A DNA stretch of 64,000 nt from Obrimoposthia wandeli (taxonomy: Eukaryota), in assembly GCA_977020255.1 (NCBI GenBank), contig CDROCS010000562.1, forward strand, positions 310,001 to 374,000, read 5' to 3'. The number at the start of each line of letters is the position of its first letter. Position 1 is the stretch's first letter. The notes beneath the pieces were generated by a model. It worked only from the letters and a program-made list of their open reading frames with translations, was not told the DNA's origin and ran no database searches. The translations under genes were made by a program, and so were the position numbers. This document shows positions 1 to 19,883 of the stretch, piece by piece.

Positions 1-235
1 TAAGTTTTTGAGAAATCGGGTAGATTTGTTCCTCGAAGTTAAGAATTTGATAAGTTTTGAAAAATCGAGTAGATTTGTTCCTCGAAGTTAAGAATTTGAT
101 AAGTTTTTGAGAAATCGGGTAGATTTGTTCCTCGAAGTTAAGAGTTTGATAAGTTTTGAGAAATCGGGAAGATTTGTTCCTCGAAGTAAGAATTCGATAA
201 GTTTTGAGAAGTCGAGTGGATTTGTTCCTCGAGTT
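1..235 (+). repeat. Tandem array of ~49-50 bp units (>=4.7 copies, truncated by window edge) in the element's 5' leader
   Basis: Unit taagttt(t)gagaaatcgggtagatttgttcctcgaagttaagaatttga repeats at about 1, 51, 100, 150, 198. Confidence 0.95.
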
Positions 236-237
236 AG

Positions 238-459
238 TAAATTTGATAAAGTGAGAATCGAGTGGATTGATACTCGAAGTAATTAATTGAATAGGTTAAG
301 TCGGGAGACTGTGTCCTCGAACTAATTAAAGAAATAAAAAATCGTAAATAAATTTGATAAAGTGAGAATCGAGTGGATTGATACTCGAAGTAATTAATTG
401 AATAGGTTAAGTCGGGAGACTGTGTCCTCGAACTAATTAAAGAGATAAAAAATCGTAAA
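238..459 (+). repeat. 111-bp tandem duplication in the 5' leader
   Basis: taaatttgataaagtgagaatcgagtgg...aaaaatcgtaaa occurs at 238 and 349, nearly identical. Confidence 0.95.
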
Positions 460-728
460 ATAAGAATTGTGAAATAAGATACAATAATAAGTAAATTGAT
501 ATCGTAAACGAATACATAATTGATAAGACAACGGATAATAGAAAAGGACCCGCGTATAATACTAGAAGACAAAGTCAGATTCCCAAGGAAGAGATAAATA
601 ATAATAAAGTTAACCGAATTGAACAGGTTCCCCAAACAGATAACGAAGTAACAGAAAAGACTAGAGTCGAAGAAAACGTATCAGAAAGAGACGTTGATCA
701 ATCAGCGGTTTCAACCGGCAGTTTTAAT

Positions 729-3269
729 TTGACTGAATTATTTGGTGACATAGACCCAGAAGAATATGAAATTGCCAATCCAGTAGTGATTGAGGAAGTT
801 CCATTGAATAATATTGAAGAAATAGTTGAAGATATAGTTGAAAATATGGCTCAACCAGGAGCTCAAGCAGAAAATAATGCAGGAAATAATGTAGGTGACA
901 TGAATGCCGAGCAGTTGGCACAAGCCATAAATGCGACGTTGAGACCCAATTTTTCAGGATCATTGCAGATTACAAAGTTTAAAGGAGATGAGGAAAGTAT
1001 TTGTGACTTCCTCGCAGAATATTCGAGTTGTGCAGATGTTCAAGGATGGAACGATAAAGAAAAATGTGTCCGAGTACAGGCACACTTAACCGGATTAGCA
1101 CTTGAAGTGTATAAACATTTGACAGAAGCAGAACGTTTAGACTGGCCAACGTTGGAAAATGCTTTTATTGGAAAATTGGTATTAGGAGACTTAGCCAAAG
1201 TAAATAAGCGACTCATGAGAGAACGGAAACAGAAACATGATGAAGGCGTGAATGAATACGCGTATGTTTTGAGAACCTTGGCCGCAAGAGCGTACCCAAG
1301 AAGAATAATGAGAAATCAGGACGGTAATCCTGTAGCTCAAGAAGCACAAGTAGCGGAAAATGACCGGAACCAAAATGAAATGGCAGAGGTTTTGTTAGAT
1401 ATATTTAGAGGAGGATTGAAAAAGGATATTAAAGTGTTATTAGCAGTATCGGATACAAATGATTTTGATAACGCCGTGCGAAAGGCGAGAGAGATCGAGA
1501 AAAATATAAAAAATAACGCAGCATTGGCAATTTACGCAATGACTGCAGGTGACGACGATAAGACAAAGGTATTTGTGAATAAAACAGAACCGAGTAATTT
1601 TCAGAATCGAAATTATGGACAAAATAAGTTTGAAAAAGTAGATGAATCCAGTAACGGAAATAGCGATAATTTCCGAAGTAGGAATCGAGATGATTCGAGA
1701 GGTAGAAATAATAGTGAGTCTTGGAACAGGAATCGAGATGATTCAAGAGGTAGAAATGGTAATGATTCGTGGAATAGAAATAGAGATGATTCCAGGAATA
1801 GATTTAATAGAGATAATTCAGGAAATCGCCAACCTTGGAGAGGAGACGATAGGAATTATAACGCCAACAGAGGAGAGCGAAGTGACTCTCGATTTGGAAA
1901 TAATACAGGAAGTAGTGACGGAAGATTCAATAATCGAGGAAGCGGTTTTGAATCGAATTTCCGAAGAAATGATTTTAGAGGACGATATGATAATAGACAG
2001 AATAGTCGTCGAGTGCAGTTCGAAGATGAACAAAATAAGATAGATATTCGAGGGAGAATAATGTGTTACACGTGTAAACAAATGGGTCACTATTCGAGAG
2101 ATTGTACGAGAAGTAAAGAGTTCGGAACTAACAGATTTGGAAATAATAATTTCGGTAATAATAATTTTGGAAACAATTATAGAGGATATAATTCACCTCC
2201 GCCATGGAATAGAGGTGGGGGATATACTCCACAGCCATGGAGACCGAATAATCAGTATACAGATAGACAACAGTCACCAGGTAGATACAATAACTATGCA
2301 GACAGACAGCAAGGAGCTGAGAGATACAATAATTACGTAGGACAGCAAGGAGCTGAGAGATATAATAATTCCGGTAAATATAATAATAATAATGTCGACA
2401 AGACAAATAGTCGTGAGAGTTCGCCGAAACCGAAGGGAAATTTTAGTTATGTAAGCGATGACAGCGATAGGAATCGTGAGACCGAACTTCGACGCGAAAT
2501 AGATTTTGAGGATAGTGATAGTAAATTTGAACGAATGTTGGGAATAATTAAAGATTCACCACATACAAAGATGGCGAATTCATCTACGTTGTCGAAACAA
2601 GCAAAAAGTCTACACTCGAGAGAAGAGATGAATGATTTAATGAATAAAATACTAGAAGCGTATGAGACACCAATAGAGAAAACGTGTAACGCACAACCTA
2701 TGACTGATCATGTAGAAGCAGCAAGAAATGCTATGAGTATGGAAAATGAAAAAAAGATAATTAGTGAAGCTAAGGAGACGTTGAATCAACCGTTAGATGA
2801 AACAAGTGAAGCTCCAGAAGTTTTGGCCAAATTGCAAACAATTAAAGTGCACAGATTGGAAGAAGTGCGAGCAGAATTGGTTAAACATAGTCATGATAAC
2901 TTGGGTTACAAAGAAGTACCACGAGGACTATTGAAAGGTTATGGTCGTTACGTACAGAGATCAAACCAAAAAGGAACGATGAAAATTTCGCTTCGATTAA
3001 TTTCCGGACAGATAATACATGAAAAACTTAACGTGTATCAGACAATGAAAACTATTCGGAAAAAGTTGGCAGAGAAACTTGAAATTGATGGAATGAATAT
3101 GTTGTTCCATTATAAAGGGAGATCACTAGATGATGAGGACGTACCAGTCAAGTGTGGATATCCGATAGGAAATGAATTAGAGGAAAAAATTGATGTCATC
3201 ACGGTAGGACGTCAAGAGTTAGTAGATAATGAAGGATTAACGGAGATATTAAATTCTGCGTTGGAATAG
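729..3269 (+). CDS. gag: ORF1: Gag (capsid-like domain, R/N/D-rich and N/Q/Y/G-rich low-complexity regions, CCHC zinc knuckle) with a C-terminal ubiquitin/SUMO-like domain
   Basis: FKGDEESICDFL..W..KEK..V..HLTG.AL..Y retrotransposon Gag pattern; knuckle CYTCKQMGHYSRDC; UBL-like MKISLRLISGQ...FHYKGRSLDDEDVP at 2979-3212. Frame is open from 495; 729 is a TTG and the first ATG is 846. Confidence 0.9.
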   Translation: MTELFGDIDPEEYEIANPVVIEEVPLNNIEEIVEDIVENMAQPGAQAENNAGNNVGDMNAEQLAQAINATLRPNFSGSLQITKFKGDEESICDFLAEYSSCADVQGWNDKEKCVRVQAHLTGLALEVYKHLTEAERLDWPTLENAFIGKLVLGDLAKVNKRLMRERKQKHDEGVNEYAYVLRTLAARAYPRRIMRNQDGNPVAQEAQVAENDRNQNEMAEVLLDIFRGGLKKDIKVLLAVSDTNDFDNAVRKAREIEKNIKNNAALAIYAMTAGDDDKTKVFVNKTEPSNFQNRNYGQNKFEKVDESSNGNSDNFRSRNRDDSRGRNNSESWNRNRDDSRGRNGNDSWNRNRDDSRNRFNRDNSGNRQPWRGDDRNYNANRGERSDSRFGNNTGSSDGRFNNRGSGFESNFRRNDFRGRYDNRQNSRRVQFEDEQNKIDIRGRIMCYTCKQMGHYSRDCTRSKEFGTNRFGNNNFGNNNFGNNYRGYNSPPPWNRGGGYTPQPWRPNNQYTDRQQSPGRYNNYADRQQGAERYNNYVGQQGAERYNNSGKYNNNNVDKTNSRESSPKPKGNFSYVSDDSDRNRETELRREIDFEDSDSKFERMLGIIKDSPHTKMANSSTLSKQAKSLHSREEMNDLMNKILEAYETPIEKTCNAQPMTDHVEAARNAMSMENEKKIISEAKETLNQPLDETSEAPEVLAKLQTIKVHRLEEVRAELVKHSHDNLGYKEVPRGLLKGYGRYVQRSNQKGTMKISLRLISGQIIHEKLNVYQTMKTIRKKLAEKLEIDGMNMLFHYKGRSLDDEDVPVKCGYPIGNELEEKIDVITVGRQELVDNEGLTEILNSALE

Positions 3270-3383
3270 ATAAAAACGCCTATAGAAATTTTAGACAGTT
3301 CAAGCGAAAGCGGAGATAATGATGTAGCTGAAGCTTGGAACAAGACATCCACACCAGAACCGTACGTAGCTGAATTACAAGAC

Positions 3384-6300
3384 ATGAATTTAGAAAATGA
3401 GTTGACAACTCCAGTGGTCGAGGTGCCACCAGAACCAGATATAATTCAAATCAGACAAGATGAAGTCACGGATACAGCTAATCAAGCGAGACAAAACGAA
3501 AACGTAACCCAACTAGTAGGAGAAGACGAAATCTCCGAAATTGTAGATTTAGATTCACCAATTTGGCATGCTGCATACAAAGATAGACAAGCAGAGCAGA
3601 TGATGCGACAAAATGAAGAGATTGGCCATGAAGAAGGACCAAGTCAAGAGATACAGTATAATGATGAACCGTATGATCCAGGAGAGAATCAAACTGAGTA
3701 TCAGTATTTTCGAAGAGGACCTGGAAGACCTAGAAAGGACGGAAGTATATTACGAAATGTTCTAACTGCACCACAAACTGATGAAGAGAGACATCTAAGC
3801 ATTGGACAGTTAGCAGCGTCATTAGAGCAGTATAGTGCAGAGAGGAATGAAGATATCAGAGGTGATATGAATTCAGAAGCTCCAAGTAGTAAAGATATAC
3901 TTACGGGAATTCTCAGGCAAGTGAAGCCGAAGTTGTTCAAAATGTACAGAGATGAAACAACCGATATAACAGACAATTTGACTAAAGCAGTTAGATCACA
4001 GATGTCTGCAGTAAAGAGAATGACCGCGAATCATGTATACCATGCATCGATAGATAGATTTTACGACGGTGAAGTTTTAGCGCGATTATGTGGAAACCAG
4101 ACTACAAATAAAAAGTTAATTACAGCAATCACATATCTATGTTTCCAATTGACGGAACGAACGAGCCAACCTCACGAAGTCAAACAAGGAATAAATGAAG
4201 CAATGTATCTGATCGAGAATGTATTACAGAGACGAATTGACGAAAACGGAGGTTGGGCAAAATTAAGTGACTACGCTAAAACCATTGTGGAAATGAATGA
4301 AGACGATGACGAACAATGTCATGAGAATCGTCAAAGAGAAAATAAACAATACCGTCCGAAAGAGAGAAACAATCAACCAAATATGTCCACAACAATGATG
4401 ATGATGATGTTAGTAATGTTCATGGGAATGCAACAGGCATCAGGACTGATAGCATACGACTGTAGCATACCAAAGATGGGACAAAAGTATTCACTGCTTG
4501 ACAGCGAAGACTGTCCAGAATCACAACCGTCAAAACTAGAAGTTAAAGGTGTTGAAAACTACTTTGTGTATCAGGATGTTGATAAAGTACAAGTAGAAGT
4601 GAAAGAATGTTCAATCCATTCAAGTTATCACGAATTCTATTGTGGCCATAGAAGTTTTATGTCGGAAATCACACCTACCACACCGTACAAAGCACATAAG
4701 GTTTTGCCAAGAGATTGCGAAGACGCATTTCGAACAGGAACAATAGAAGTAGACAAGAATTACAAACCTGATGTAAAAATTGGAGTGAGACGATACGAAA
4801 CAGTCACGAGAGTCGGACAACGATGGGCTGATGGATCTTGTGACGGAGGAACAAAAAACGTGCGTGGAACCAAAGTAACCGAGTTAGTAATGGACGTAAC
4901 TTACAAAATCGAATTAAAAACATGGACCGCCAATTTTGATAAAAAGACACAACTAATGATGAAGTATCCAGAATGTAAAATGACAGATACATCTTGTTTT
5001 ACAGGCGAATCCACAATTGTGTATCACGTGAATCCGAAACAATGCTCTTTAGTATTTTTGAAAGAGATTAGCTTTAACAAAATAAAAGGATTCCTGTATA
5101 ATAAAGATGGAGAAGGATTCCTGTATAATAAAGTTGGAAAAGGATTGCTCAATGAAACAAGACCAATTCCAATGACAAAGACACCTACACTGTTAATGGC
5201 AACATCAATAGAAGAAGGATTGATATTTATTAAAAAGAGAAACAAAGCGCGATGTGGAATGACTGTTAGTACTACAAACTATCCTGGAATAGTTTTGTCC
5301 AAAGAAGCAATAGCATTGGCAGAAACCAAGCTAGAACCTAGAGATATGCAGCTACACACGTATTTTAATAATAAAATTGATTTCTATTATCATAAAGGAT
5401 TGATGCAAATGGAACAGTTATATCGGATGATGATCGAAAGAGATTGCCAGCTAAACAAAGAGATCGTAAGAACAAAGTTAGCATTAGCTATTACGAATCC
5501 AGACATGGTAGCACCATTATTACCCTTGGATGAAGGAGTATTTGCTAAAACCATGGGAGAAGTATTGTATACTTACAAGTGTAATAAAGTAGAGGTACAG
5601 TTGAGAAAAACAGATCGATGTACGAGTGAATTGGCAGTAACGTATAATTTAAAAGATCTTTTTGTTGAACCAATCACGAGAATGATACTTCCAAAAGACA
5701 CTCCAACTAAAGAAATCAGCTGCTCTAATATAATGGCACCTGAATATCAGATGACGAATGATCTATGGATAACGTTACCTGATCGAAAGCCAACGAAAAC
5801 CCCAGCGATGATAAAAATGACGAATCTTAAAGGTAAAATGAAATTCGAAGCGGTGGAAAATATGGAGAACGCAGGATTGTACAATGAAAAAGATTTAAAA
5901 GCGGCGTGGAACGAAATAATGTTTCCAGTAAAAAGAGCCAGAGTACTTACGGAGATGGTACATCGAGCATTACCGCCAGGAGCTAGATATGCGAATTTTG
6001 ATATGTTATTATCGCCAAGTCATTTCAAGGAAGCAGCACATCAGACACTTAGAAAGATGTGGGGGAAATTCCTTGTTTTAGGACAACTATTTTCGGGTAT
6101 CATAGGTATTTATGTTATAATTAAATTTGTGCTGGTAATTATAGCCCAGGTGTTGTCTACGTATAGTTTATACAGGATAACCGGAATCACCTGGCAACTT
6201 ATAATTGGATGTTTTCCATTTTTAGCAAAATATCTAATGCACCATCATCACGAGAACGAGTTGCGAGCCCTCAAGAAGGAGCAACATCAAACGAGAACCA

Positions 6301-6986
6301 TGATACGAGACCCAAGAAATTATCGAGACGACAACGACGACGATAACGATAGTCCAGGAGTATATGCAAAGATACCAGGAAAACCAAAGATTCCGTTACC
6401 AGACAAGGAAGAAGTGGCGTTAAACCTATACCCAATGAAGGAACTAAAGGAAGAGAAGGAAAAGTTCAAGAGAGGCATTTTAATGATAAGATGGCCTAAA
6501 GTGAGCTACAGTGAGATTCCACAAGCAGAGGAAAAAGACAAAAAAGATAATTCCAGAAGAATTCTGAAGTCTAGGATATCAAATGAGAATCCAAATGCTC
6601 CACCCCAAGTAGCAGTAACATTGAACGGAAGAGAATATCTTGCCGAAGTTGATACTGGATCCGCAGTATCAGTACTGAGTAAAGAAATCTTGTCATCAAA
6701 AGAATTAAGAGAAGTATGTCCTAGAAAACAGACATTTGTTAACGTAAATGGTACAGATGTAGTGTCGGAAGGAACACTGAAATGTTCATTGAATATCGAT
6801 GGAAGAGCATTGCAGTTAAGTGCTAGAATATTCACAGATTGCGGTAGTCCAGTCATGATTGGGATGGACGTAATAAGAATGTTTGAAGGAATAATTATAC
6901 TACCAAACAACAAGAGTTATAAGAATGACAGTTCAGTGAGAGAGATAAAAATGTTGAGAGGACCTATAGTCGAAAAGAAAAAATAA
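3384..6986 (+). CDS. env: ORF2: acidic N-terminus + AT-hook + Bcl-2-like domain + internal signal peptide + chuvirus-type (class III-like) envelope glycoprotein + TM + retropepsin 1
   Basis: RRGPGRPRK (3711-3737); IDENGGW BH2-like motif (~4236-4256); signal MSTTMMMMMLVMFMGMQQASG then LIAYDC (4446); Cys-spaced ectodomain motifs DGSCDG, RCGMTVSTTNYP, RDCQL, GEVLYTYKC; TM ~6070-6236; protease VDTGSAVS (DTG 6651-6659). Confidence 0.85.
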   Translation: MNLENELTTPVVEVPPEPDIIQIRQDEVTDTANQARQNENVTQLVGEDEISEIVDLDSPIWHAAYKDRQAEQMMRQNEEIGHEEGPSQEIQYNDEPYDPGENQTEYQYFRRGPGRPRKDGSILRNVLTAPQTDEERHLSIGQLAASLEQYSAERNEDIRGDMNSEAPSSKDILTGILRQVKPKLFKMYRDETTDITDNLTKAVRSQMSAVKRMTANHVYHASIDRFYDGEVLARLCGNQTTNKKLITAITYLCFQLTERTSQPHEVKQGINEAMYLIENVLQRRIDENGGWAKLSDYAKTIVEMNEDDDEQCHENRQRENKQYRPKERNNQPNMSTTMMMMMLVMFMGMQQASGLIAYDCSIPKMGQKYSLLDSEDCPESQPSKLEVKGVENYFVYQDVDKVQVEVKECSIHSSYHEFYCGHRSFMSEITPTTPYKAHKVLPRDCEDAFRTGTIEVDKNYKPDVKIGVRRYETVTRVGQRWADGSCDGGTKNVRGTKVTELVMDVTYKIELKTWTANFDKKTQLMMKYPECKMTDTSCFTGESTIVYHVNPKQCSLVFLKEISFNKIKGFLYNKDGEGFLYNKVGKGLLNETRPIPMTKTPTLLMATSIEEGLIFIKKRNKARCGMTVSTTNYPGIVLSKEAIALAETKLEPRDMQLHTYFNNKIDFYYHKGLMQMEQLYRMMIERDCQLNKEIVRTKLALAITNPDMVAPLLPLDEGVFAKTMGEVLYTYKCNKVEVQLRKTDRCTSELAVTYNLKDLFVEPITRMILPKDTPTKEISCSNIMAPEYQMTNDLWITLPDRKPTKTPAMIKMTNLKGKMKFEAVENMENAGLYNEKDLKAAWNEIMFPVKRARVLTEMVHRALPPGARYANFDMLLSPSHFKEAAHQTLRKMWGKFLVLGQLFSGIIGIYVIIKFVLVIIAQVLSTYSLYRITGITWQLIIGCFPFLAKYLMHHHHENELRALKKEQHQTRTMIRDPRNYRDDNDDDNDSPGVYAKIPGKPKIPLPDKEEVALNLYPMKELKEEKEKFKRGILMIRWPKVSYSEIPQAEEKDKKDNSRRILKSRISNENPNAPPQVAVTLNGREYLAEVDTGSAVSVLSKEILSSKELREVCPRKQTFVNVNGTDVVSEGTLKCSLNIDGRALQLSARIFTDCGSPVMIGMDVIRMFEGIIILPNNKSYKNDSSVREIKMLRGPIVEKKK

Positions 6987-6998
6987 ACTACGTTCCGT

Positions 6999-9900
6999 AT
7001 GGGAAATTCGTACCAAGACAAAAAACAGGAAGCGCTAGTAAAGTCGATACTTCACTACAAAAACGTAAACCTCGGACCACAAGAGATGACGAGGAGGAAA
7101 ATAACATATGTGAATCTGTCAGAAAAGGATCCCATGAGATTCGAGAAAAAGAGACGAAATATATTAGAACTGTACTATTCAAAAGAAATGGCACGTAAAA
7201 TGGCAAGATCAGGTTTAGAAATGTTAAACGCGACAAGCAGTTATGGTCATGAGATAGTAGTACGATGCGTATTGTGTAGAGTAAAGTTTAGAGAGTGGGA
7301 AAAGAATGAAAACCCAATGAGACGTCATAAAAGAGATGCACCAAATTGTCCATTTCTTTTGAAACTGAAAACGTCAAACGTACCAGAAATCCAAAAAGGA
7401 AAAGCACCCGATTTCGATTACAGTGACGAGATTCCAAAAGGAGAATCAGCTCTAATAGTAGGCAGAGTAGTAACAAATAGCCGAATTGAAGACATATTCG
7501 AAGTTATGCGAGAAGTGAACGAATGTGACGAACAGTATCGAGAAATAACTTTCGAAGATCCAAGACTTAAAAAATTGGCAAAAAAGGGACTTTTTGCTAT
7601 AAAAAAGGATGGTAAAGACGTAATTAAATGCCACAAGTGTAAAAAAGAACGAATTATCGACAGATATACTCTTGAGCTGCCTAAGAAAATTTTACATCAT
7701 GAATTTTGCGAGTTTTGTATGTTAAAAAACAAAATAAAGCAAAAAGAACAGAAAACCGAATGTATAATCGAATACCAAATCACACGGAAAGAGATCTTGG
7801 CTCAACAGGACACACCGGTAGTGTCATTCGTGAGAAGGTTATATCCAAAAGAAGCAGAAAGAATCAGAGAATTGGTAGAATTAAAAATAAAAACTACGCG
7901 AAACGGATACGGATCGATTTTTGAATTACTGCGAGATAAAGATGACAGTACAATTGAAACAAAAGAGAAAGAGTACATAAATGAACTAGAATACGTACTA
8001 GAAGATCCGGAATGCGCAGTTTGCATGGTCAACAAAATAGAAGTTGCCTTTCTACCATGCGGACATGTAAGAACATGTCGGAGATGTGCGAACGAAATGG
8101 TATCATGTCCAATTTGTCGAAGAATAATAGATCGACAAGTGAGAAACATTAGATTTCACTATCCAAACAAAGGAAGTGGACCGACAGAGTGTAATAATTC
8201 GATAAATACAATATACCATATGGGAAATATAAATGGAGCACAGCGACCAGCAGCTATCATTAGAGTAAATAATTTAAGAGTAAAAGCCTTAATTGATACA
8301 GGTGCTGTAGCTTCGATAGTAAGTGAAGACTGTTTGACAGAAGAACAGAAACGAACAATGGCAGAACCAGATGAATTCTTGGTATCGGTCAATGGAGACC
8401 CTGTTAAAGTGACGGGAATATTACCATGTACATTTATAATTGGACGTAATACGATCACTATACCCGTTAGAATCATGAAAGAATGTCCTGAACCTACAAT
8501 TTTAGGAATGAATGTACTATCTCAACTTAAAGGAATAAGTATTGATTTACAAGATCCAAGATTGAAGGATAGCACATCAAACAGACAAATAAACCAAATT
8601 GATGTAATTATAGAGAATCCTATAAAAATCGGAAAAAGATCACAATTTCTCATTCAAGGTCACACCTTATCAGAAGATAAAGGACCAGTTGTGTTCGAAC
8701 CATCACGAGATTTCATAGAGAAATACGAATTACCAGTTGTAAGTACAGTATGTCTGATTGAAAATCACAAAATACCAGTTAGACTGATGAATACAACCAA
8801 CAATGACATCCTATTATACAGAGGGATGAGGTTTGGAAAGATAGCACAGATGGAGAATCCCACCATGTGTGCTATGAAACTCGATAAAGATACGAATGAT
8901 TACGAAGAAATAGTAATCCAATCAGAAAGACTGACAACTAGAGAAAAGAAACAATTACTTGATCTAATACATAAATTTCCGAAAGTAATTGCAAAAAATC
9001 CATATGACATAGGAGAAACACCTGTCATAAAACATACAATACCACTGACAGAAGACAAAGTAGTCAGAAGAAGACCATATCGAGTACCATTACAGTTACA
9101 AGATGAAGTAAAAAGTCAGATCGAAGATATGTCTAAAACAGGAGTAATTAGACCGAGTTTTTCGCCATTCTCAGCACCTGTGGTGTTGGTAAAAAAGAAG
9201 GATGGGAAAATGAGATTCTGTATAGATTTCAGAGAACTGAACAAGATCACAAGAAAAGATGTGTATCCATTACCTAGAATCGAAGAGATGCTCGATACAT
9301 TGGGTAATTCAGATTTTTTTACAACATTAGATTTGCAGAGTGGATACTGGCAAATCGAGATAGAGGAAGAGGATAAACACAAAACAGCCTTTTCCTGCGG
9401 AGATGGATTATACGAATGCGAAAAGATGCCATTCGGACTGACAGGAGCTCCAGCAACATTTCAGCGTTGCATGAATTTTGTACTCGCATCGTGTGCAAAC
9501 ACGATGGTTTATATCGATGACATAATAATATTTTCGAAAACGTTCGAAGAACATTTAAAAAATCTTGAAGTTGTATTTAAAAGACTGGAAAACGCTAAAT
9601 TAAAAGTTAAACCTACAAAATGCGAATGGGCTAAAGAGCGAGTAACATTTTTAGGACATATAGTATCGAAAGAAGGCATTCGACCTAATCCAGCAAAGAT
9701 CGAGAAAGTAAAAGCGCACTTAGCGCCAAAGACTGTTAAGGAAATACAGAGTTTTTCAGGTCTTGCGAACTATTATAGACGATTTGTTGAACATTTGTCA
9801 GATATAGCAACACCATTGAGAAAGTTGACGAGGAAAGATAAGAAGTTCATATGGGGAGAAGAAGCACAACAAGCGTTCGAGCATTTAAAAGAAAGACTGA

Positions 9901-11666
9901 TAAAAGCACCAATATTAGGGTTTCCAGATATAAATCGAAAATTCATACTAATGACAGATGCAAGTAACTATGCTGTAGGAGCAGTATTGGGACAAGAGGA
10001 TGACGAAGGAAGAGAACACGTCATCGCGTATGCGAGTAGAGGATTAAACAGAGCCGAAAGAGGATACTCTGTTATCGAAAAGGAATGTCTAGCCATAGTG
10101 TATTCATGTAGACAGTACAGACACTATTTGCTAGGACAAAAAGTATTCCTGTATACAGATCACAAACCACTACAGTTCTTATATAAACATAGAGATGAGA
10201 TGAGTAGATTAAACAGATGGTTTCTAAAATTGGCCGAATTCGATCTAGAAATCCGTTATAGAACCGGAAAGTCGAACGGCAACGCAGATTGTTTGTCGAG
10301 ATTGACAAATGTAGACGAGAAAGGAAACATAATTCCAGAAGAAGATGAAACCAATGACCAAAAAGGAGAAGCAAATCTACTGACGATTTTGCTAAAGACG
10401 GGTAAAATAGACAAAGAGATCATCAAAGAACAGAAAGAAGATGAAGAACTGAGTCTAATCAAAGAATTGTTGGTGAATGGAGACCTAAACGATGAAATGA
10501 CGAAAAAATACTCGATAAAAGAAGGAATCTTGTATATTGTCAATAATGTCGGAAAGATAGTAGTAGTAATTCCGAAGTCATTGAAAACAGCAGTGATGAT
10601 CCAGTATCACGATGGAACACTAGGAGGACATCTGTCAGGGCGAAAGACAATAGCCAGAATCAAAGAGAAGTACCATTGGGATGGTATGGAAGACGACATA
10701 AAACAATGGTGTAAACAATGTAAAGTATGTTTAACCAGAAAAGACACCGGAACTCGTACTAAAGTTCCACTGAAACCAATGCCAGTTCCCTTGGCACCAA
10801 TGGAATTCACAGCGATGGATATATTGGGATCATTGAGAGAATCAAGTAAAGGAAACAAGTACGTCATAGTATTTACGGACTACATGACGAGATGGGTAGA
10901 AGCATATCCCATGCAAAACCAGAAAGCTGAAACAATAGCGCAAATCTTAGTGGAAGAGATAATATTTCGATACGGAGTGCCTAGAAAGTTGTTAACGGAT
11001 CAAGGTAAGAACTTCACTGGAGAAGTCATAAAAGCAGTATCGAAGATATTCGGAATCATGAAGTTACAAACTTCACCATATCACCCACAAACAGATGGTC
11101 TAGTAGAAAGGTTTAATAAAACTTTATGTATGATGGTACAATCCTATTGCTCAGACAAGCAAGAGGATTGGGATAAATATTTACCTTCATGTTTATATGC
11201 TTACAGGAATTCAGTTCGAGAGGCGACGGGTCACACACCATTCTATCTGATGTATCTCAGACAGAACAATATGCCGATGGATCTGGAGTGGACCCAGCCA
11301 ACATCTCAGTATCTAGAAACTGAACAATACATTGTCGTCATGAAGGAAAGATTACAAGATGCTTGGACCAAAGCCGGATTGAAGTTGAAATTCAATCAAG
11401 AAGGTTACAAGGAACAATACGACAAAAAAGCAAAACCACATGAATTTAGAGTCGGAGATCAAGTGATGATATTTTATCCAGTCATCGAACCAGGTCTATC
11501 GTTTAAACTGCATAGACCATACAAAGGACCATACAAGGTGATCCAAACAACCTCAACAAATTTGAAAGTAATCAACGAAGAGAATCGGAACAAGGAACCG
11601 ATGATTGTACATGCAAATCGATGTAAATTAGTACCAAATAAAGATAACACGTCACGATATGAGTAA
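6999..11666 (+). CDS. pol: ORF3: IAP module (BIR, degenerate BIR, RING) fused to Pol (retropepsin 2, dUTPase-like spacer, RT, RNase H, integrase)
   Basis: BIR C-x2-C-x16-H-x6-C at 7266-7349; RING CAVC..PCGH..C..C..CPICR at 8013-8132; LIDTGA (8295); RT LDLQSGYWQ, MPFGL, YIDD (9510-9521); RNase H TDAS..GAVL, TDHKPL; integrase H..GH..C..C, MDILG, TDQG, ERFNKTL, GPY. Confidence 0.95.
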   Translation: MGNSYQDKKQEALVKSILHYKNVNLGPQEMTRRKITYVNLSEKDPMRFEKKRRNILELYYSKEMARKMARSGLEMLNATSSYGHEIVVRCVLCRVKFREWEKNENPMRRHKRDAPNCPFLLKLKTSNVPEIQKGKAPDFDYSDEIPKGESALIVGRVVTNSRIEDIFEVMREVNECDEQYREITFEDPRLKKLAKKGLFAIKKDGKDVIKCHKCKKERIIDRYTLELPKKILHHEFCEFCMLKNKIKQKEQKTECIIEYQITRKEILAQQDTPVVSFVRRLYPKEAERIRELVELKIKTTRNGYGSIFELLRDKDDSTIETKEKEYINELEYVLEDPECAVCMVNKIEVAFLPCGHVRTCRRCANEMVSCPICRRIIDRQVRNIRFHYPNKGSGPTECNNSINTIYHMGNINGAQRPAAIIRVNNLRVKALIDTGAVASIVSEDCLTEEQKRTMAEPDEFLVSVNGDPVKVTGILPCTFIIGRNTITIPVRIMKECPEPTILGMNVLSQLKGISIDLQDPRLKDSTSNRQINQIDVIIENPIKIGKRSQFLIQGHTLSEDKGPVVFEPSRDFIEKYELPVVSTVCLIENHKIPVRLMNTTNNDILLYRGMRFGKIAQMENPTMCAMKLDKDTNDYEEIVIQSERLTTREKKQLLDLIHKFPKVIAKNPYDIGETPVIKHTIPLTEDKVVRRRPYRVPLQLQDEVKSQIEDMSKTGVIRPSFSPFSAPVVLVKKKDGKMRFCIDFRELNKITRKDVYPLPRIEEMLDTLGNSDFFTTLDLQSGYWQIEIEEEDKHKTAFSCGDGLYECEKMPFGLTGAPATFQRCMNFVLASCANTMVYIDDIIIFSKTFEEHLKNLEVVFKRLENAKLKVKPTKCEWAKERVTFLGHIVSKEGIRPNPAKIEKVKAHLAPKTVKEIQSFSGLANYYRRFVEHLSDIATPLRKLTRKDKKFIWGEEAQQAFEHLKERLIKAPILGFPDINRKFILMTDASNYAVGAVLGQEDDEGREHVIAYASRGLNRAERGYSVIEKECLAIVYSCRQYRHYLLGQKVFLYTDHKPLQFLYKHRDEMSRLNRWFLKLAEFDLEIRYRTGKSNGNADCLSRLTNVDEKGNIIPEEDETNDQKGEANLLTILLKTGKIDKEIIKEQKEDEELSLIKELLVNGDLNDEMTKKYSIKEGILYIVNNVGKIVVVIPKSLKTAVMIQYHDGTLGGHLSGRKTIARIKEKYHWDGMEDDIKQWCKQCKVCLTRKDTGTRTKVPLKPMPVPLAPMEFTAMDILGSLRESSKGNKYVIVFTDYMTRWVEAYPMQNQKAETIAQILVEEIIFRYGVPRKLLTDQGKNFTGEVIKAVSKIFGIMKLQTSPYHPQTDGLVERFNKTLCMMVQSYCSDKQEDWDKYLPSCLYAYRNSVREATGHTPFYLMYLRQNNMPMDLEWTQPTSQYLETEQYIVVMKERLQDAWTKAGLKLKFNQEGYKEQYDKKAKPHEFRVGDQVMIFYPVIEPGLSFKLHRPYKGPYKVIQTTSTNLKVINEENRNKEPMIVHANRCKLVPNKDNTSRYE

Positions 11667-11714
11667 AGATCACAGAAATCGAAGCCGAATACCAATACCA
11701 TTAAACTTACACGA

Positions 11715-14700
11715 ATGGTAAGTGATCGGAACTACATAAACATGATGACGAGTGGTAGCGAGGAAAAACCAGCGAGAATTGGTATGCTCAGAATGAAGCA
11801 CCAAGAGGAAAAGGAAGTAATCCGACACATCGCACCACAAGAGATATTAGAAGAAGATGAAGAGATAATAGTTGTTTTCGAAAAAACACAACCAACAGAT
11901 GTGGCTAAAGAAGTCATTGTGAAAGATGCACTGACAAACGAATTTCTGTGCGAACTTAGAGTGTCATACTACGACGGAAATACATTAGTCGCAGCACTAT
12001 ATCAAAACTCCAATGTGTTTACGACTGAGAAAGTGATAATCGAAATCACATTGACACCAAACATAGTTGCATGGCAGAACTATGACAGTACTGAAGCAGG
12101 ACTAGCCAGTCAGGAAGAGAAGGAACCGGCCGGTGGTCACATACTGCATGGTACACCAAAAAGACTCAAACAAGAATACCACGATGTAATAATGGTATTA
12201 CGTAATTCACATGGGAAAAGAGATATCATGAGAGTTCATTTAATCGACGCAGACACCGAAAAGATAATTTGTCAGATGGACACCAAATATTTTGACGGAA
12301 AGACAATTGTATGTTGTATACCAGAATCTCACCGGTTAGACACAGATCAAACGGAAGTATCTGTAAGGTTGAGTGTAATAGAAGGATTTCATTCGCCAAA
12401 CCAACCGGAAGTGGCTAACAATAAAATCATCAAAGCAACGGCAGAGTTACGCATTGACAGTGGATACCGGAAGTGGGAAGCTAAAAATAAAAAACCACAA
12501 AGAATCAATATGATCCGAGAACAAGTGACCAACTCAATCCAGCCAAAATATCATGCTGAAATAGTATCATCCGCGCCAAGTGTGATTACATCGATAAACG
12601 ACGAAATTATAATTTTACTAAAAAATCGATGGCCGTCATCAACCGAGATACGAGTAAATTTAATTAATTATGCGAAAACACCGATATCTAAGCTGAATGT
12701 TATCTATTTTGATGGATTGTCCATCATGGGTAAATTGGAAACAATTGTCATGTGCTATGGAGCACAGTTCCAAGTTGAGATACTTAAAGATAGCGTAATA
12801 CCGTATCCGATTCACAAATACGAAGGGGAAATCAATCCAATTATTCTAACCCCTTCATTAATTTCAGTTCAGACAGACATACCAGAATACCCTTCGAGCG
12901 AGTCTAGTCAAGACAGCGAACCAGAAAGTAACGATACAGAATCAACAGAATCCGAAGATAACATGATAGAGCGATTCGGAAAAACCATGGAGGTTGAATT
13001 CGCTAAAGAGAGCAGAAAAAGACAAAACATAGAATTCGTGAAACAGAATATACAAGAAAGACGAATTAAATCTGCAGAAGAGACCGAGTCGGAAGAAGAC
13101 TCAACAAAGGAACAGACATCAGAGACAAAGATGAATATCTCTCCAGCAATACGAATGCTGAGAGGGAAGAAACTGGCAAAACTATCCAACATCGACGAAC
13201 AGATAGAGAAGAGATTAGAAAGACTAAAACTTGAAGAGTCAGAATTATTGCCACCAATGAGCGAGATCATTCCAGATAAGTTATACCTCGGAAATGTGGA
13301 AGATGCAACAGATGAAAAGAAACTGTTGGAACAAGGGATAACATACGTGATCAACGTTACAATGAATCACAAATCGCAATATCAGACAATCAGAGCTATG
13401 ACATTAGGATTAAAAGACTCAATGGACGCTAATCTTCTCGAATGGTTCGTAGAAACAAACGAAATACTTCACAGAGAACTCCGAAACCAAGGAAAAGTGT
13501 TGGTACATTGTCAGAAAGGAATTTCTCGATCAGCAACTCTAGTATTAGCATATCTAATAAAGACTAGACGAATGCAGGTACTAGAAGCGCTAAAATACCT
13601 ACAGGAGAGAAGAAGTATTGCAAACCCAAATCTTAATTTTTTGGGACATTTGGCAAATTACCAACTTCTGTTGCAAGAACAAAGACGGATGGACGACATT
13701 CCTGAGGATCCAAAGGAAAAGAATTTCCTCCAAGCATTATCGTTGACCGGGTTATTCTTAGCCGGAGTCGACAAAATTACACAGATAATGCCAAAAGTAT
13801 TTTTATGTCATCCGGGAGATATAGATACTGCTGGATTAAAGTTCCACAGTATCAACCGAGTAATCAACATTGTTGAAGTCGGAAACGAGATAATTAGTCT
13901 GTGTCAAAATACTGAAGACGACACCACTCGATACATACATGCTTCTAATCGAGAGATAAACGATGCACAACAACATCTGACGAAATTGACTCAAACCATC
14001 CAAGCCGAAGTCACAGAAGGAAACGGCGTTCTGATATATCAGAAAAAAGGTACGATGTTAGCGCCTACCATAGGTGTATCCTTGTTGGTAGAGTACCATG
14101 GTCACACGCCAGAAGAAGCGATGGTCTACATCAAACAGAATAGACCAGATACGGAATTCAAACCGTTACTCGTTCGAGAAATAGAGAAGTACGCCGAAAA
14201 GAGGAAACAGCAACGAGAAACAAATGAAGCTACAACAACAGTGCCCAGCTTTCAATACCAAAGATTGCTAGCGATAGGCTTGTTAAGTTGTCTAATGCCG
14301 ATAACGGGAGCACAAGAGATAGGCTCCAACCACGGAAATAGTTCCTGGTTCAACGAAATCCACAACTACACCATACAGTACCATACGCAGGCACTGATGA
14401 TGCTATTAGTGTTGTTAGGATTAATTGATGTATGGATCATCCGAAAATGTCTCCAATCTATGAGAACCGACAGTAAAAGATTTCAGTTTGTAAAGATGAA
14501 AAGACCAAATGGACCAACGAACAAAGTGCTTGTGTATCTAGACGAAAGGATCGAGGACAACATAGTAAATGAAGCGATATTTTACCCACAAAACAGAATA
14601 CTGAATCAATTCCGAATAGATTACGAAGCTGACCGACAGCGCACACTTGACCGAATATCAACAACATTCGCCGGATGCAAGCGAAGAAAACGAATTGTAA

Positions 14701-16928
14701 AGGAAATACAAAAAGATGCTGATACAAAAGGACCGACGTATATATTCGACGGCGATGTCATCAAAACACGTGAGTATGGAAGTAAGAGAGTGATAATAGA
14801 AACGATGGAAGGACATAAAACATGCTTGTCCGCTAAAAATGGATTCGGAAAGTTGATGATACAAGGTAAACAGGTACAGTTGATTATCGGAAGAAATGGA
14901 ATCGAGGAGATGTCAAAACAACGACAGACAACAAAACGATCCAATCAGAAACAGATATCTCTCAAACGATTGATAATTAAAACCCTTTGCAAAAGGTCAG
15001 TCAAGGCCCTGTGCACCGTTGCACAAGGATTGATCTACGGAGTAGTAATTGGATTAGTACTACAAGCCATGCCAACCAGTAAAGCTGAAATGATGACATT
15101 ATACGAGTATAATCTACATTTGAGAAATCTAGACAACACCCTCGAAATAATCAAGACGTCCCACAGTAAAGCCGTAAGGATCATGTGTGTAAAAGGATGT
15201 CCAGGACGAATGTGTATAGTTCCAGCGACCGAAATGAAAACACTTAATGGACATTATGGAGTTAGTATTGTCACATGTGAAGACTACACATTTGGACAAA
15301 CTAAAATAGTACTTCTCAGTGACATGTCCAACCAAAGTGCACACAAATTTAAAATATTAACCATCAAGAGTAAAGGAATACCAGCAGTACGTTATGGTAT
15401 TCTAGAATTGGTTAATCCAATACTCGCACTGATCATTGGATTCATAATATTAATATTACTCATCTTGTTTTGTTGTACAAAGATAGAGTTGAGATCAAAA
15501 AAGAAACGTCATGATCTCGCAAGACGAACAGGTCAAATGAATTTACAAAAATTCAACACAAGTATACCAAGACCACCATTTCTAGATGAACCAGCACCGG
15601 AGTACCAGCCAACGATATATGAACATATCGAGGAAAGACCGTACTATATGAGTAATCTGAGTTGTTTCATTGAAATTCCTGAGTTTAGGAATCGAACGAT
15701 CATAGGAATCATGCTGATCATACAAATTACCACTACCAAGGCTAGTTATGAAATCATGATCAGTAAATGGAGACAAGATGTAATACGGGCGTTATACATA
15801 GAAATCCCTCTATTAAAAACAAATCACGTAGTAGACATTCATCTACAGACGTCAGCAACCGACAATATCGATCAGAAATTGTATGTCATCCGACAGGTCA
15901 GAATAAAGATCGACAAAAGTACACCCGATTACAACTTAATATTATTCTATCATGAAAGAGTGTTATACCTACGGATAACGATATCAAAAAGGAAGCGGAT
16001 TATCCAAAGTATCCGAACAAAGTCATTAATATTGCCTAGAGATGAGCGCATCTGGAAAATTGTCGACAGGATTATGATCACAGGTAGACGACGTAAAGCC
16101 GTATGGAATTCCGTTAGAATATTTTTCAGATTACTAGAAACTGACAAAGTAACAGTATCGTGTCCCAATCCAGATGGCGGAATCAGATTCGAAATCCAAA
16201 ACCAAATGTTAGTACCACATTTTGATACAGAATGTCTGTGTAATCGAATTCCCAGTAACACTACAGAGACCTCAACCATAATCATGGTAATAACAGGTGA
16301 AATATTCTACATAACTCTAAGATACCAGAACCGTCGATTTCGTAGATCCGGTATAAGTATCAAACCCAGGAAAATCATTCCCAAAAAACCAATCCTAGTC
16401 AAAAAGAAGGCAAAGATAAACGAAAGTAAACCCCATTCCAAAAAGCCGAACGTGATCAGAACAAAGACAGAAGCGAAAGAAAAAGAGCTAAATTCCAGAA
16501 ACCAAAGTACAGTTATTAAGAGGACAAGAGTGAGGGGAACGATCCCACTAGATCCCAAACATCATTTCCAATCCAAAATAATAATACCTGTTCTACCAGA
16601 AACAAAACACCCAAATCCACGAATTTTTAGAAAATCGGACATAATACATGGAAACCGATCAAAACCCATGGAAATGTCATTCGAACCGACAAACAACAAA
16701 ATGAAGTATGATTATCAATCATCAGATAGCGGAGTAACAGCGGTCAATGCTCTAATTGGAATGGCCGTAGTGTCAACAGCAGTGGTTCTATTGACAATCG
16801 TGTGCGTGAAAGGCAGTCAAGTATGCCCAAGAATACGACGAAAATGCGAAGGATTGCGATGCTGTGACAAACCCACCATGGAGGAAGTGGAATTGCGACC
16901 CTTACCTCCGCCTCCCATCAAGATATGA
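11715..16928 (+). CDS. ORF4: accessory polyprotein with 3x IPT/TIG-like repeats, dual-specificity phosphatase, inactive phosphatase copy, and several signal-peptide/TM modules
   Basis: Three ~80-aa repeats with a Y(Y/F)DG core; DUSP IIPDKLYLGN...VLVHCQKGISRSAT (HC at 13506); second DUSP-like domain with VLIYQKKGTMLAP; six hydrophobic segments; ends TGA TAA. Confidence 0.85.
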   Translation: MVSDRNYINMMTSGSEEKPARIGMLRMKHQEEKEVIRHIAPQEILEEDEEIIVVFEKTQPTDVAKEVIVKDALTNEFLCELRVSYYDGNTLVAALYQNSNVFTTEKVIIEITLTPNIVAWQNYDSTEAGLASQEEKEPAGGHILHGTPKRLKQEYHDVIMVLRNSHGKRDIMRVHLIDADTEKIICQMDTKYFDGKTIVCCIPESHRLDTDQTEVSVRLSVIEGFHSPNQPEVANNKIIKATAELRIDSGYRKWEAKNKKPQRINMIREQVTNSIQPKYHAEIVSSAPSVITSINDEIIILLKNRWPSSTEIRVNLINYAKTPISKLNVIYFDGLSIMGKLETIVMCYGAQFQVEILKDSVIPYPIHKYEGEINPIILTPSLISVQTDIPEYPSSESSQDSEPESNDTESTESEDNMIERFGKTMEVEFAKESRKRQNIEFVKQNIQERRIKSAEETESEEDSTKEQTSETKMNISPAIRMLRGKKLAKLSNIDEQIEKRLERLKLEESELLPPMSEIIPDKLYLGNVEDATDEKKLLEQGITYVINVTMNHKSQYQTIRAMTLGLKDSMDANLLEWFVETNEILHRELRNQGKVLVHCQKGISRSATLVLAYLIKTRRMQVLEALKYLQERRSIANPNLNFLGHLANYQLLLQEQRRMDDIPEDPKEKNFLQALSLTGLFLAGVDKITQIMPKVFLCHPGDIDTAGLKFHSINRVINIVEVGNEIISLCQNTEDDTTRYIHASNREINDAQQHLTKLTQTIQAEVTEGNGVLIYQKKGTMLAPTIGVSLLVEYHGHTPEEAMVYIKQNRPDTEFKPLLVREIEKYAEKRKQQRETNEATTTVPSFQYQRLLAIGLLSCLMPITGAQEIGSNHGNSSWFNEIHNYTIQYHTQALMMLLVLLGLIDVWIIRKCLQSMRTDSKRFQFVKMKRPNGPTNKVLVYLDERIEDNIVNEAIFYPQNRILNQFRIDYEADRQRTLDRISTTFAGCKRRKRIVKEIQKDADTKGPTYIFDGDVIKTREYGSKRVIIETMEGHKTCLSAKNGFGKLMIQGKQVQLIIGRNGIEEMSKQRQTTKRSNQKQISLKRLIIKTLCKRSVKALCTVAQGLIYGVVIGLVLQAMPTSKAEMMTLYEYNLHLRNLDNTLEIIKTSHSKAVRIMCVKGCPGRMCIVPATEMKTLNGHYGVSIVTCEDYTFGQTKIVLLSDMSNQSAHKFKILTIKSKGIPAVRYGILELVNPILALIIGFIILILLILFCCTKIELRSKKKRHDLARRTGQMNLQKFNTSIPRPPFLDEPAPEYQPTIYEHIEERPYYMSNLSCFIEIPEFRNRTIIGIMLIIQITTTKASYEIMISKWRQDVIRALYIEIPLLKTNHVVDIHLQTSATDNIDQKLYVIRQVRIKIDKSTPDYNLILFYHERVLYLRITISKRKRIIQSIRTKSLILPRDERIWKIVDRIMITGRRRKAVWNSVRIFFRLLETDKVTVSCPNPDGGIRFEIQNQMLVPHFDTECLCNRIPSNTTETSTIIMVITGEIFYITLRYQNRRFRRSGISIKPRKIIPKKPILVKKKAKINESKPHSKKPNVIRTKTEAKEKELNSRNQSTVIKRTRVRGTIPLDPKHHFQSKIIIPVLPETKHPNPRIFRKSDIIHGNRSKPMEMSFEPTNNKMKYDYQSSDSGVTAVNALIGMAVVSTAVVLLTIVCVKGSQVCPRIRRKCEGLRCCDKPTMEEVELRPLPPPPIKI

Positions 16929-17050
16929 TAAGTCAGAGGAGGTTGTAGATAATTAATGTATGAAATATGTAGAAATACCTAGAAGCAATTGTACAAATAG
17001 TAGAAATATATAAAACTCATGTAGAAATTAATCATCATCATGTATTTAGA

Positions 17051-17350
17051 ATGTCCGAAGAATGCCCAATATGTTTGGAAGATCTAACCGAACGAAGAAC
17101 AAGACCCGAAACCTGCAACCATTTACACCACGAGGAATGTTTATCGACATGGATCAGAACTTATGGACAGTTCGGACATCCAACATACCCTTGTTGCCCT
17201 GTATGCAGAAGACAATTCGCAAGATTCATCATGTTAGAACCCAACCAAGAGGATGTATATGTACAGGTGGTATTCTGTTGGAAGAATTTCGGAGAGTGTT
17301 GGTGTTACTACTGTTTGTCAGAACGACAAAATCCGACCACTTTTGTGTAA
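17051..17350 (+). CDS. Small RING-H2 protein 1 (putative E3 ligase) with C-terminal Cys motif
   Basis: CPIC...CNHLHHEEC...CPVC gives C3H2C3; tail CWKNFGECWCYYC. Confidence 0.85.
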   Translation: MSEECPICLEDLTERRTRPETCNHLHHEECLSTWIRTYGQFGHPTYPCCPVCRRQFARFIMLEPNQEDVYVQVVFCWKNFGECWCYYCLSERQNPTTFV

Positions 17351-17410
17351 ACATCACACAATCACCAGTCCTCAATCGAGCCCAAATTCAACATCAACCC
17401 TCTCACAGTA

Positions 17411-17716
17411 ATGTCTGGAGAATGTTCCATCTGCTACGAGAGCATCGTGGACTTCTACACCAAGCCCAACAACTGCGACCACCTCTTCCACATCGAATGC
17501 CTCGAGACGTGGATTCCCATCGCCAACAGCAACAATCCCCTCGACTTCCCAACCTGCCCGATGTGCAGAGCGACCTTCTCAGTGCACTACGTGTACAACC
17601 AGGACAGCCTCCAAGCAGTGGTACCCATAGTACACTGCTGGAAAACTATCTGCGATTGCTGGTGCTCGTTCTGCGTGGAGGAGCGACGCACAGGCCAGCC
17701 CAATTCCCAGCAATAA
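17411..17716 (+). CDS. Small RING-H2 protein 2 (paralog of RING 1)
   Basis: CSIC...CDHLFHIEC...CPMC; tail CWKTICDCWCSFC; collinear with RING 1. Confidence 0.85.
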   Translation: MSGECSICYESIVDFYTKPNNCDHLFHIECLETWIPIANSNNPLDFPTCPMCRATFSVHYVYNQDSLQAVVPIVHCWKTICDCWCSFCVEERRTGQPNSQQ

Positions 17717-18067
17717 TCGAAGGTAACTTTCTGACTTTGAACGTGACATCATGAACTACCCTGTGTATTGCATACCGCGATAAATTAGCTACCATAATTG
17801 TAATCATAATTGTATAATCTTGTGAAACTGTAAAATGACCATTACCATTTTTATGTATGTTGTTTAACTGAAATTGTAATTATTATACTGAAATTCTAAA
17901 AGACAATTTTTATGCCTAGTGTGAATGTGTAAACATGCCTAAAATCAGAACAAAACTCGGTAGGATTAAAAAACTAAAGGTTCATTTTGAAACTAAAATT
18001 TTAACCTTATAAATTAACGACGAAAACAGTTGAACCCCAAGTTGAAAGGAATCATTTTCTTGTGCAG

Positions 18068-18598
18068 ATGAAGTGTTCAGTATGCAGGGAGAAAATTTGG
18101 ACGGGATCGGCATCCCCTGTCGGCTGCCGTCACAAATTCCACGAGTCGTGCCTCTATTTGTGGGCCAAGGCTCGACCCCCAGGCCAAATCACATGCCCAT
18201 TGTGCCGGGCACCCTTTTGCAAGTGGACGCTCCAGTGCCGTGGACGATCCAAGGGCACCCGATCACCTGCCAGTTGCATTGGTGGCATACACTGCCAGTG
18301 CTACGTGTGTCTCGCACGCCGTCGCGACACACAATTGGGCATCCGCGAGCGATGGCGGTCTAGCCGCGACTGCCATTCATGGTTCCAGGCCAGACGCTTA
18401 TGGATGGAGAACCATGCGCTGAACGGGCAATATTTTGACCTATTTGTCGAGAGCCCGCACCTGACCCGGAGCCAGCAACTACACCTCTACAACGGGGACA
18501 GTCCGTCCTTTCCAGACCTACCCCTGGAGCAGGTCATGCGTTACCTAACTAGTCGGAACCAGCCGACAATTACAATCGATCTTACTAACGACAATTGA
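18068..18598 (+). CDS. RING-H2 protein 3 (diverged paralog with longer C-terminus)
   Basis: ATG at 18068; CSVC...CRHKFHESC...CPLC; tail CIGGIHCQCYVC. Confidence 0.8.
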   Translation: MKCSVCREKIWTGSASPVGCRHKFHESCLYLWAKARPPGQITCPLCRAPFCKWTLQCRGRSKGTRSPASCIGGIHCQCYVCLARRRDTQLGIRERWRSSRDCHSWFQARRLWMENHALNGQYFDLFVESPHLTRSQQLHLYNGDSPSFPDLPLEQVMRYLTSRNQPTITIDLTNDN

Positions 18599-19324
18599 TA
18601 ACATTACATTCTTTCCTCCCTTCTTTCCTTCCTAATTCCTTACTTATCTATGTAGCCATTTTGTGTATAAGTAATAAATTAGTGAATATTTGAGACTCTG
18701 TCCAAATGTTCACTTTTTTAGAAAAAACCGAGTTTCTTTTAAAAGTTTTGGGCATGTTTGATGAATTGAATGACTGATTTTGTAGGGATGGACCTAAAAT
18801 CAACAGCCAGAGGCTTATAAGAGTAAAATCGATACGTTCCGGGGACGTAACTTTTTTGGAACCCCCGAGATATGTTAGATTTAGGAATTGAGAAATTATT
18901 AAAAAAATTAAATAATTTATACTAAAATAAAATCCTTGAAAGCAAGGTTGAAAATTAAATATTTAAAATTAAGTTAAAATATTAGAGGATAAAATCAGGG
19001 GTAAATATTAATAGGACCACGAAGGTCGTGTGTAGTGTGTCGTATATATAGGTTAAGATTATTAATACAAAAGTGCAAAATAAGAATAAGACTTAATTAG
19101 GGGAAACTAAGAAGAAAAATCAAGAAAGAAATTAATCAAGGAAAGAAGAAATTATCGTTTAATTTTCCACCTGCCAAATTGTTTCGGCGCAGCACTCGTT
19201 ATATCGACTATTGTGTTTTCAGCTGTCTAGGATCGACAGTAGCGCTCGAGCCTAAGAGGAAAAAAGTAATTAGATTAAATCTATAAATTTTACTTAATTG
19301 CTTAGCAGCTGATTTTATATCGAC

Positions 19325-19404
19325 TATATAAGTCGCCCCAATCAATTGTCAGAAAAAGAAAGGATTCTAGCCGAGACACACACAGCGGAAAAGAGCTGGT
19401 AAGC
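19325..19404 (+). promoter_or_regulatory. TATA-like box and downstream 5' splice donor in the putative LTR
   Basis: TATATAA at 19325-19331; CTG|GTAAGC with GT at 19399-19400. Confidence 0.45.
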
Positions 19405-19487
19405 GTGTCTAATTTGAGTTAGATTAATTCCGGCATTTTTATAGAAATCTGAAATTTACCAATCCTGAAATATTTACCCATCCTGCC

Positions 19488-19883
19488 ATCAATTTGAATC
19501 CAGTATTATCAATTTGAATCCAGTATTATCAATTTGAATCCAGTATTATCAATTTGAATCCAGTATTATCAATTTGAATCCAGTATTATCAATTTGAATC
19601 CAGTATTATCAATTTGAATCCAGTATTATCAATTTGAATCCAGTATTATCAATTTGAATCCAGTATTATCAATTTGAATCCAGTATTATCAATTTGAATC
19701 CAGTATTATCAATTTGAATCCAGTATTATCAATTTGAATCCAGTATTATCAATTTGAATCCAGTATTATCAATTTGATCCAGTATTCTCAATTTGAATCC
19801 AGTATTATCAATTTGAATCCAGTATACTCAACTGCATCCAGTATACTCAACTGCATCCAGTACGCTCAGCTGAATCCAGTTTG
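19488..19883 (+). repeat. 20-bp tandem array (~20 units) inside the LTR
   Basis: atcaatttgaatccagtatt x14 perfect (19488-19767), then progressively diverged units. Confidence 0.98.

Follow-up and report, generated by a model that had tools for sequence, protein, structure and literature searches.

The genome of Obrimoposthia wandeli contains an abundant, very young Burro-type LTR retrotransposon that holds a conserved IAP module within its polyprotein; we consider it quite probable that this module is cut free and that it is a predicted ubiquitin ligase which likely keeps the host cells alive. The element was analysed in a window of 64,000 nucleotides (GCA_977020255.1, contig CDROCS010000562.1, positions 310,001 to 374,000 of the forward strand); positions below are those of the window unless another locus is named, and the features of the element within the window lie on its + strand.

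The element has the Burro layout, a giant of gypsy order carrying the IAP module, and measures 23,583 bp (~23.6 kb). Its 5' LTR (2,038 bp) lies upstream of the window at G000:C562:307377-309414 (L031:7377-9414) and is followed by a TGG primer-binding-like site; positions 1..494 hold the last part of the 5' leader, including tandem repeats, and the 3' LTR (2,087 bp) occupies 18873..20959. Both LTRs have TG...CA termini, the target-site duplication is 4 bp (AAAT), and the LTRs differ by 4 mismatches in 1,994 aligned bases when tandem-repeat indels are set aside, the mark of a young insertion. Searching the animal's own genome (1.35 Gb) gave at least 118 scored matches with 96-100% amino-acid identity; the element is both high-copy and young. 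Contigs from two sequencing runs span the stretch, and an assembly artefact as the source of the element was ruled out by the 118 scored matches and the short-read contigs. The insertion site is the leader of an older, related element: the upstream flank (L031:7100-7376) holds an LTR end about 70% alike along with a primer-binding-like site, and the downstream flank (20960-21460) holds a decayed gag start. Further out in the window we observed an ORF of 557 aa that lacks introns and matches the secretin family of 7TM proteins (23328-25001), two near-identical short MITE-like repeats 8 kb apart (34314-34487 and 42391-42579), and a 300-bp duplication at 34623/35051.

A single reading frame of ~5,480 codons (495..16928) runs through the element, and in the window copy three private stops (positions 3267, 6984 and 11664) divide it into four consecutive in-frame long ORFs (495-3269, 3270-6986, 6987-11666 and 11667-16928). 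The codon at 6984-6986 was a sense codon in 29/29 siblings picked by IAP similarity and again in 29/29 picked by protease-2 DNA (58/58 for both sets together); codons 3267 and 11664 were each sense in 14/14 siblings, and sibling open frames spanning the IAP reached 4,985 aa. Since the stops are private to the window copy, the family encodes a single ~5,480-codon polyprotein in which the IAP has a protease on either side; as the siblings carry sense codons at all three positions, programmed read-through was rejected. The motifs named in the original prediction do all lie in one frame (6987-11666), with protease 2 in frame directly after the IAP; its placement of the IAP as the N-terminus of Pol was wrong, given that the stop at 6984-6986 is sense in the siblings and the module is internal. 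The window copy itself likely makes none of the IAP module, because two of the stops lie upstream of it.

The order along the frame is Gag, ubiquitin-like, Bcl-2-like, Env, protease 1, IAP, protease 2, RT, RNase H, integrase and phosphatase. Gag (846..2108) gave a weak Pfam Retrotrans_gag match and has a CCHC knuckle at its end; the ubiquitin-like domain (2970..3230, Pfam E 0.0028) and the weak Bcl-2-like segment (3945..4280, Pfam E 0.051) both scored below the cut-off. The Env-like fusion glycoprotein (4380..6200; Monjiviricetes_fusion, 320 bits) has a transmembrane segment starting at about 6066. Pfam also matched aspartic protease 1 (6609..6878), aspartic protease 2 (8241..8534), and the RT, RNase H and integrase in gypsy order (9189..11087); after the integrase the same frame continues into two stretches of dual-specificity phosphatase (13281..14200), behind which come four transmembrane-like segments. 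GC-richer accessory ORFs (17050..18598) with three RING-H2-like motifs are situated downstream of the long frame and ahead of the 3' LTR; the motifs of 17050-17754 were read by eye, and the Pfam RING match is confined to 18005-18598.

The IAP module (7041..8168) comprises BIR1, BIR2, a UBA-like domain and a RING, and is collinear with free IAP genes found on Mavericks in the same genome; its homology to free IAPs extends from 7041 to ~8160, so that the extent first proposed (7150..8132) is too narrow. BIR1 (7131..7385) has the predicted C-x2-C-x16-H-x6-C spacing, with ligands C7266, C7275, H7326 and C7347, and scored 37.1 bits in Pfam against a cut-off of 22.9. The RING (7985..8165) is of the IAP-type C3HC4 kind, as had been predicted (Pfam zf-C3HC4_3, 44.3 bits); the cIAP1, cIAP2 and XIAP RINGs and the DIAP1 BIR1 were among the best PDB matches of the module. 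IAP RINGs normally terminate the protein; this one sits inside the polyprotein. An aromatic-proline pair, a typical retroviral protease bond, follows just after the RING, and each position of this junction is conserved in at least 9 of 10 copies. The BIR-BIR-RING layout that had been called complete does hold these domains and misses a further one, UBA-like and of the type found in cellular IAPs, which separates BIR2 from the RING (approximately 7760..7950); this domain aligned weakly to the UBA region of cIAP1, and its profile matched 24/148 other IAPs compared with 0/148 shuffled sequences.

BIR2 (7521..7725; ligands C7629, C7638, H7695 and C7707) had been described as degenerate, which is correct for its spacing and not in the sense of decay. 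It departs from the canonical spacing, with x18-H-x3 in place of x16-H-x6, and in the window it gave no Pfam match; the shortened C-x2-C-x18-H-x3-C pattern nevertheless recurs, at about 30% identity, in Maverick family A and in the proteins P0010, P0011, P0014 and P0121, with x19 in P0038, whereas Maverick family B is without BIR2. Its four ligand residues were invariant in 7/7 aligned homologues of 23-31% identity, and its profile matched 27/148 IAPs as against 0/148 shuffled sequences; judged by its sequence, BIR2 is non-canonical yet conserved and is BIR-related by profile. AlphaFold, given a 12-sequence alignment of the module, folded BIR1, BIR2 and the UBA (pLDDT about 60-88 by block), with BIR2 modelled as a helix, three strands and a short helix (pLDDT 78-88); the RING was not folded (pLDDT below 50). 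Foldseek with this model matched PDB BIRs. In an alignment of BIR1 with cIAP1 BIR3, the E, W and F of cIAP1 BIR3 are matched by R, D and A of BIR1, at positions that we take to line the IBM pocket; an Arg in the IBM pocket marks non-IBM (type I) BIRs. Because the pocket residues are absent from BIR1, direct caspase binding or classical IBM binding by BIR1 appears doubtful.

Sibling variants were counted in 29 copies picked on protease-2 DNA alone, plus the window copy. The whole module was present in 29/29 copies, 11 of them intact and the other 18 interrupted by a stop or frameshift within the IAP; such breaks were equally common in RT and RNase H, which fits decay after insertion. IAP variants common to at least two copies comprised 44 synonymous and 20 non-synonymous changes (dN/dS 0.11), compared to 44 synonymous and 73 non-synonymous private variants (dN/dS 0.42; Fisher p=8.8e-5), and the RT gave 0.04 for shared and 0.31 for private variants. 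The IAP module is under purifying selection; dN/dS across copies, which had been put forward as a check, thus showed a selected module, and neutral decay was not seen. Shared dN/dS by domain was 0.14 for BIR1, 0.19 for BIR2, 0.05 for the UBA and 0.00 for the RING; singly, BIR1 (p=0.1) and BIR2 (Fisher p=0.49) had no significant constraint versus the private baseline. Both BIR ligand sets were intact in 14/14 more divergent copies (91-95% identity), for which whole-module dN/dS was 0.23-0.31, in pairs that share the window's branch and so are non-independent. Between subfamilies, BIR1 had a dN/dS of 0.48-1.04, with most changes falling in the N-terminal half of the domain and around an indel of 2 residues; this fast change is possibly adaptive. 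BIR1 dN between subfamilies was ~0.19, versus mostly 0.01-0.10 elsewhere in the module, and its zinc ligands were intact.

A BIR search of the same genome, in which the best 150 of 12,110 candidates were scored and 30 loci fetched, returned 28 loci with free IAP ORFs, which fall into two families (341 and 301 aa), and two cellular-looking BIRs, which we take to resemble survivin and Bruce. None of the 28 free IAP loci lay beside a Burro protease; a Maverick ATPase or integrase lay within 1.5 kb in 16/28, and the TBP-like gene of the same elements accompanied the other 12. The larger Maverick stretches contain an A32-like ATPase, an rve integrase, an adenain-like protease and, from the motifs read, what is presumably a type B polymerase. 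Multi-copy Maverick/Polinton-type elements with free IAP genes were seen at G000:C609:140001-168000 (L068-L070), G000:C777 (L074-L075) and G000:C3067 (L071-L073). In one Maverick family, inverted repeats of 4.1 kb with 99.7-99.9% identity contain the IAP, the TBP-like ORF and a partial phosphatase, and flank a core of ~6 kb with ATPase, integrase, capsid-like and protease genes; no polymerase ORF was found between the 4.1-kb repeats of this IAP-bearing family. The Maverick IAPs align collinearly with the module (32-36% identity) and end 3-4 residues past an RFH motif that they have in common with it. The family A IAP adjoins a phosphatase that is 29.5% identical to the first phosphatase stretch of the retroelement (E 3e-14). 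New here are these collinear IAP homologues, free-standing and borne by Mavericks within the genome that also holds the Burro-type element; in one of their families a related phosphatase lies alongside.

A representative search gave further collinear proteins (P0010, P0011, P0014, P0121 and P0038), of which P0010 scored against the module as high as the Maverick proteins did; scans of viral and metagenome contigs for the context of P0011 found no relative. The word-indexed protein searches returned only 4 and 1 distant proteins, and no IAP-Pol fusion appeared in them, one of these searches being confined to proteins of 857-2,729 aa. For a tree (186 columns), 39 of 166 sequences were used, those with BIR, UBA and RING hits, and the other 127 were left out; this set contains no named baculoviral sequence and no flatworm host gene. 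The window module, four Maverick proteins and four of the P-proteins grouped in one clade, separate from 30 other IAPs (100/100); its branches are long and its inner order is unresolved. Gene exchange between Mavericks and a Burro-type element is possible on this sequence evidence. We would go further only tentatively, to an IAP subfamily with a shortened second BIR that resides mainly on mobile elements and may have been passed, with the phosphatase, between Mavericks and giant Env-bearing LTR retroelements.

In the reading that we prefer, unbroken copies would translate the whole ~5,480-codon frame, and the transmembrane segment of Env would leave protease 1, the IAP, protease 2, RT and integrase on the cytosolic side. 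The proteases would cut on both sides of the module, probably right behind the RING, at the point where the free homologues on Mavericks terminate; once released, the RING and UBA could ubiquitinate caspases or their activators, and cells expressing the element would survive. The original prediction had the IAP released by proteolysis and co-produced with RT and integrase: the placing of all three in one frame bears out the second part, and release by the proteases is plausible from the layout. The tie that it drew to apoptosis set off by integrase-induced breaks is hypothetical.

Selection could instead have kept the module as an E3 ligase or scaffold whose targets are proteins of innate immunity or silencing, by cIAP- or DIAP2-like signalling or through the removal of restriction factors, with any effect on survival being secondary; this we think rather unlikely. 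A BIR1 without IBM-pocket residues (whose role is assumed here), the fast change of BIR1 between subfamilies, the UBA-like domain and RING as the most constrained parts (shared dN/dS 0.05 and 0.00), and the phosphatase and RING-H2 cargo of the element would all suit such a target. Against it stand the Bcl-2-like segment, weak as it is, within the same frame, and the Burro1 counterpart, which is reported, at second hand and in the accessible part of the source, to block caspase-mediated apoptosis (PMC13465017). It is improbable that the module remains fused to protease 2 or Pol and works on the element, for example in the turnover of Pol, in the assembly of particles or in budding: cleavage is predicted from the sequence, and the frame continues past the RING whereas the RING of the free homologues ends the protein, but two proteases flank the module, its boundaries coincide with those of the free IAP genes, and the pair after the RING that resembles a retroviral protease bond is conserved. 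That the IAP is a neutral passenger decaying in a successful element, as the 18/29 broken copies and the BIR2 without a Pfam match might suggest, is very improbable and is largely refuted by the sibling variant counts, where shared variants are strongly synonymous, along with the breaks being as frequent in RT and RNase H and the zinc ligands being kept across subfamilies and in homologues at 30% identity. Capture from a baculovirus or similar large DNA virus, to which the original prediction pointed through the layout of two BIRs plus RING, has as little probability: Foldseek in BFVD did find baculoviral and nudiviral IAPs (best E 5e-9), but the best of these had 13-23% identity with poor global overlap, whereas the module and the Maverick IAPs are collinear at 32-36%; its UBA-like domain is of the kind seen in cellular IAPs, and its best collinear relatives are proteins either borne on Mavericks or unassigned.

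Baculoviral IAPs, for which we take Op-IAP3 as the type, share with the module two BIRs plus a RING and the structural matches, and differ in their low identity and in being free genes, where the module has a UBA-like domain and a non-canonical BIR2. With cellular cIAP1/2, XIAP, and mollusc and echinoderm IAPs the module has in common the BIR1 zinc motif, the UBA-like domain and the IAP-type RING; it differs by its shortened second BIR, its altered IBM-pocket residues, its position within a polyprotein and its long separate tree branch. Carriage of IAPs by Maverick-type elements is known, with IAP and Bcl2 homologues noted in the part of the adintovirus account available to us (PMC8502044), and the two such families here are close collinear relatives of the module.

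Planarian Burro elements are described, in the accessible portion of PMC6431247 (citing Jurka 2007 and Grohme 2018), as having an ORF of 4,873-5,140 aa with Gag, ubiquitin-like, Bcl-2-like, in-frame Env and BIR regions, and BURRO1 is termed highly abundant and active in the excerpt available of PMC8532177. The likeness of our element to Burro1/GYPSM1 and Burro2-4 is taken from published descriptions and from domain layout and order: a length above 20 kb, a single ORF of about 5,000 aa (~5,480 here), high copy number, Gag-CCHC, ubiquitin-like, Bcl-2-like, BIR and protease-RT-RNase H-integrase, and an in-frame Env, resembling mononegavirus fusion proteins, between Gag and protease. The Bcl-2-like and ubiquitin-like segments here are below the Pfam cut-off, yet stand in the published Burro order. 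The element is shorter (23,583 bp) than the >30 kb given for Burro of S. mediterranea, and has one CCHC by Pfam and two proteases around the IAP. Its post-integrase phosphatases and 3' RING-H2 ORFs find no mention in the available portion of the Burro description (PMC6431247). Pfam gave no match for MATH/TRAF or ankyrin in the element, and MATH is not in every Burro's ORF1 according to that portion; nor was there a Pfam match for a dUTPase-like domain between protease and RT, at 8550-8900, where the published Burro dUTPase call, as given in the text available, came from HHpred.

An anti-apoptotic role has been reported for the Burro1 "B-IAP" (Lee et al. 2026, Dev Cell, as cited in the accessible part of PMC13465017), which is likewise a BIR and RING region inside a Burro element; its function is reported, whereas that of our module is predicted. 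The anti-apoptotic reading of the module is partly supported, by analogy with the role reported there. Our literature search, of a kind that misses most subscription papers, found no paper on an IAP common to Burro and Mavericks.

No cellular RING-IAP surfaced in the own-genome searches, where 88-150 of 12,000-20,000 candidates were scored each time, a scoring that may miss a split host gene. All 34 of the loci fetched in three of these searches match this retroelement at 90-98%, and in a fourth, the BIR search described above, 28/30 loci were Maverick-linked. RING-IAPs are reported, in the part of PMC13159474 available, as lost in the flatworms sampled, those named being parasites. If flatworms have indeed lost their cellular RING-IAPs, mobile elements would be the host's sole source of RING-IAP activity.

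An IAP inside a Burro polyprotein is already published; the element described here represents a second family, abundant and very young, in which selection maintains the module. To this are added a UBA of the cellular type, a conserved non-canonical BIR2, natural boundaries taken from free homologues, and Maverick relatives in the same genome. Should the Maverick link represent real exchange, it would change the origin story of the Burro anti-death gene, and would mean that cargo moves between a DNA virus-like element and a retroelement.
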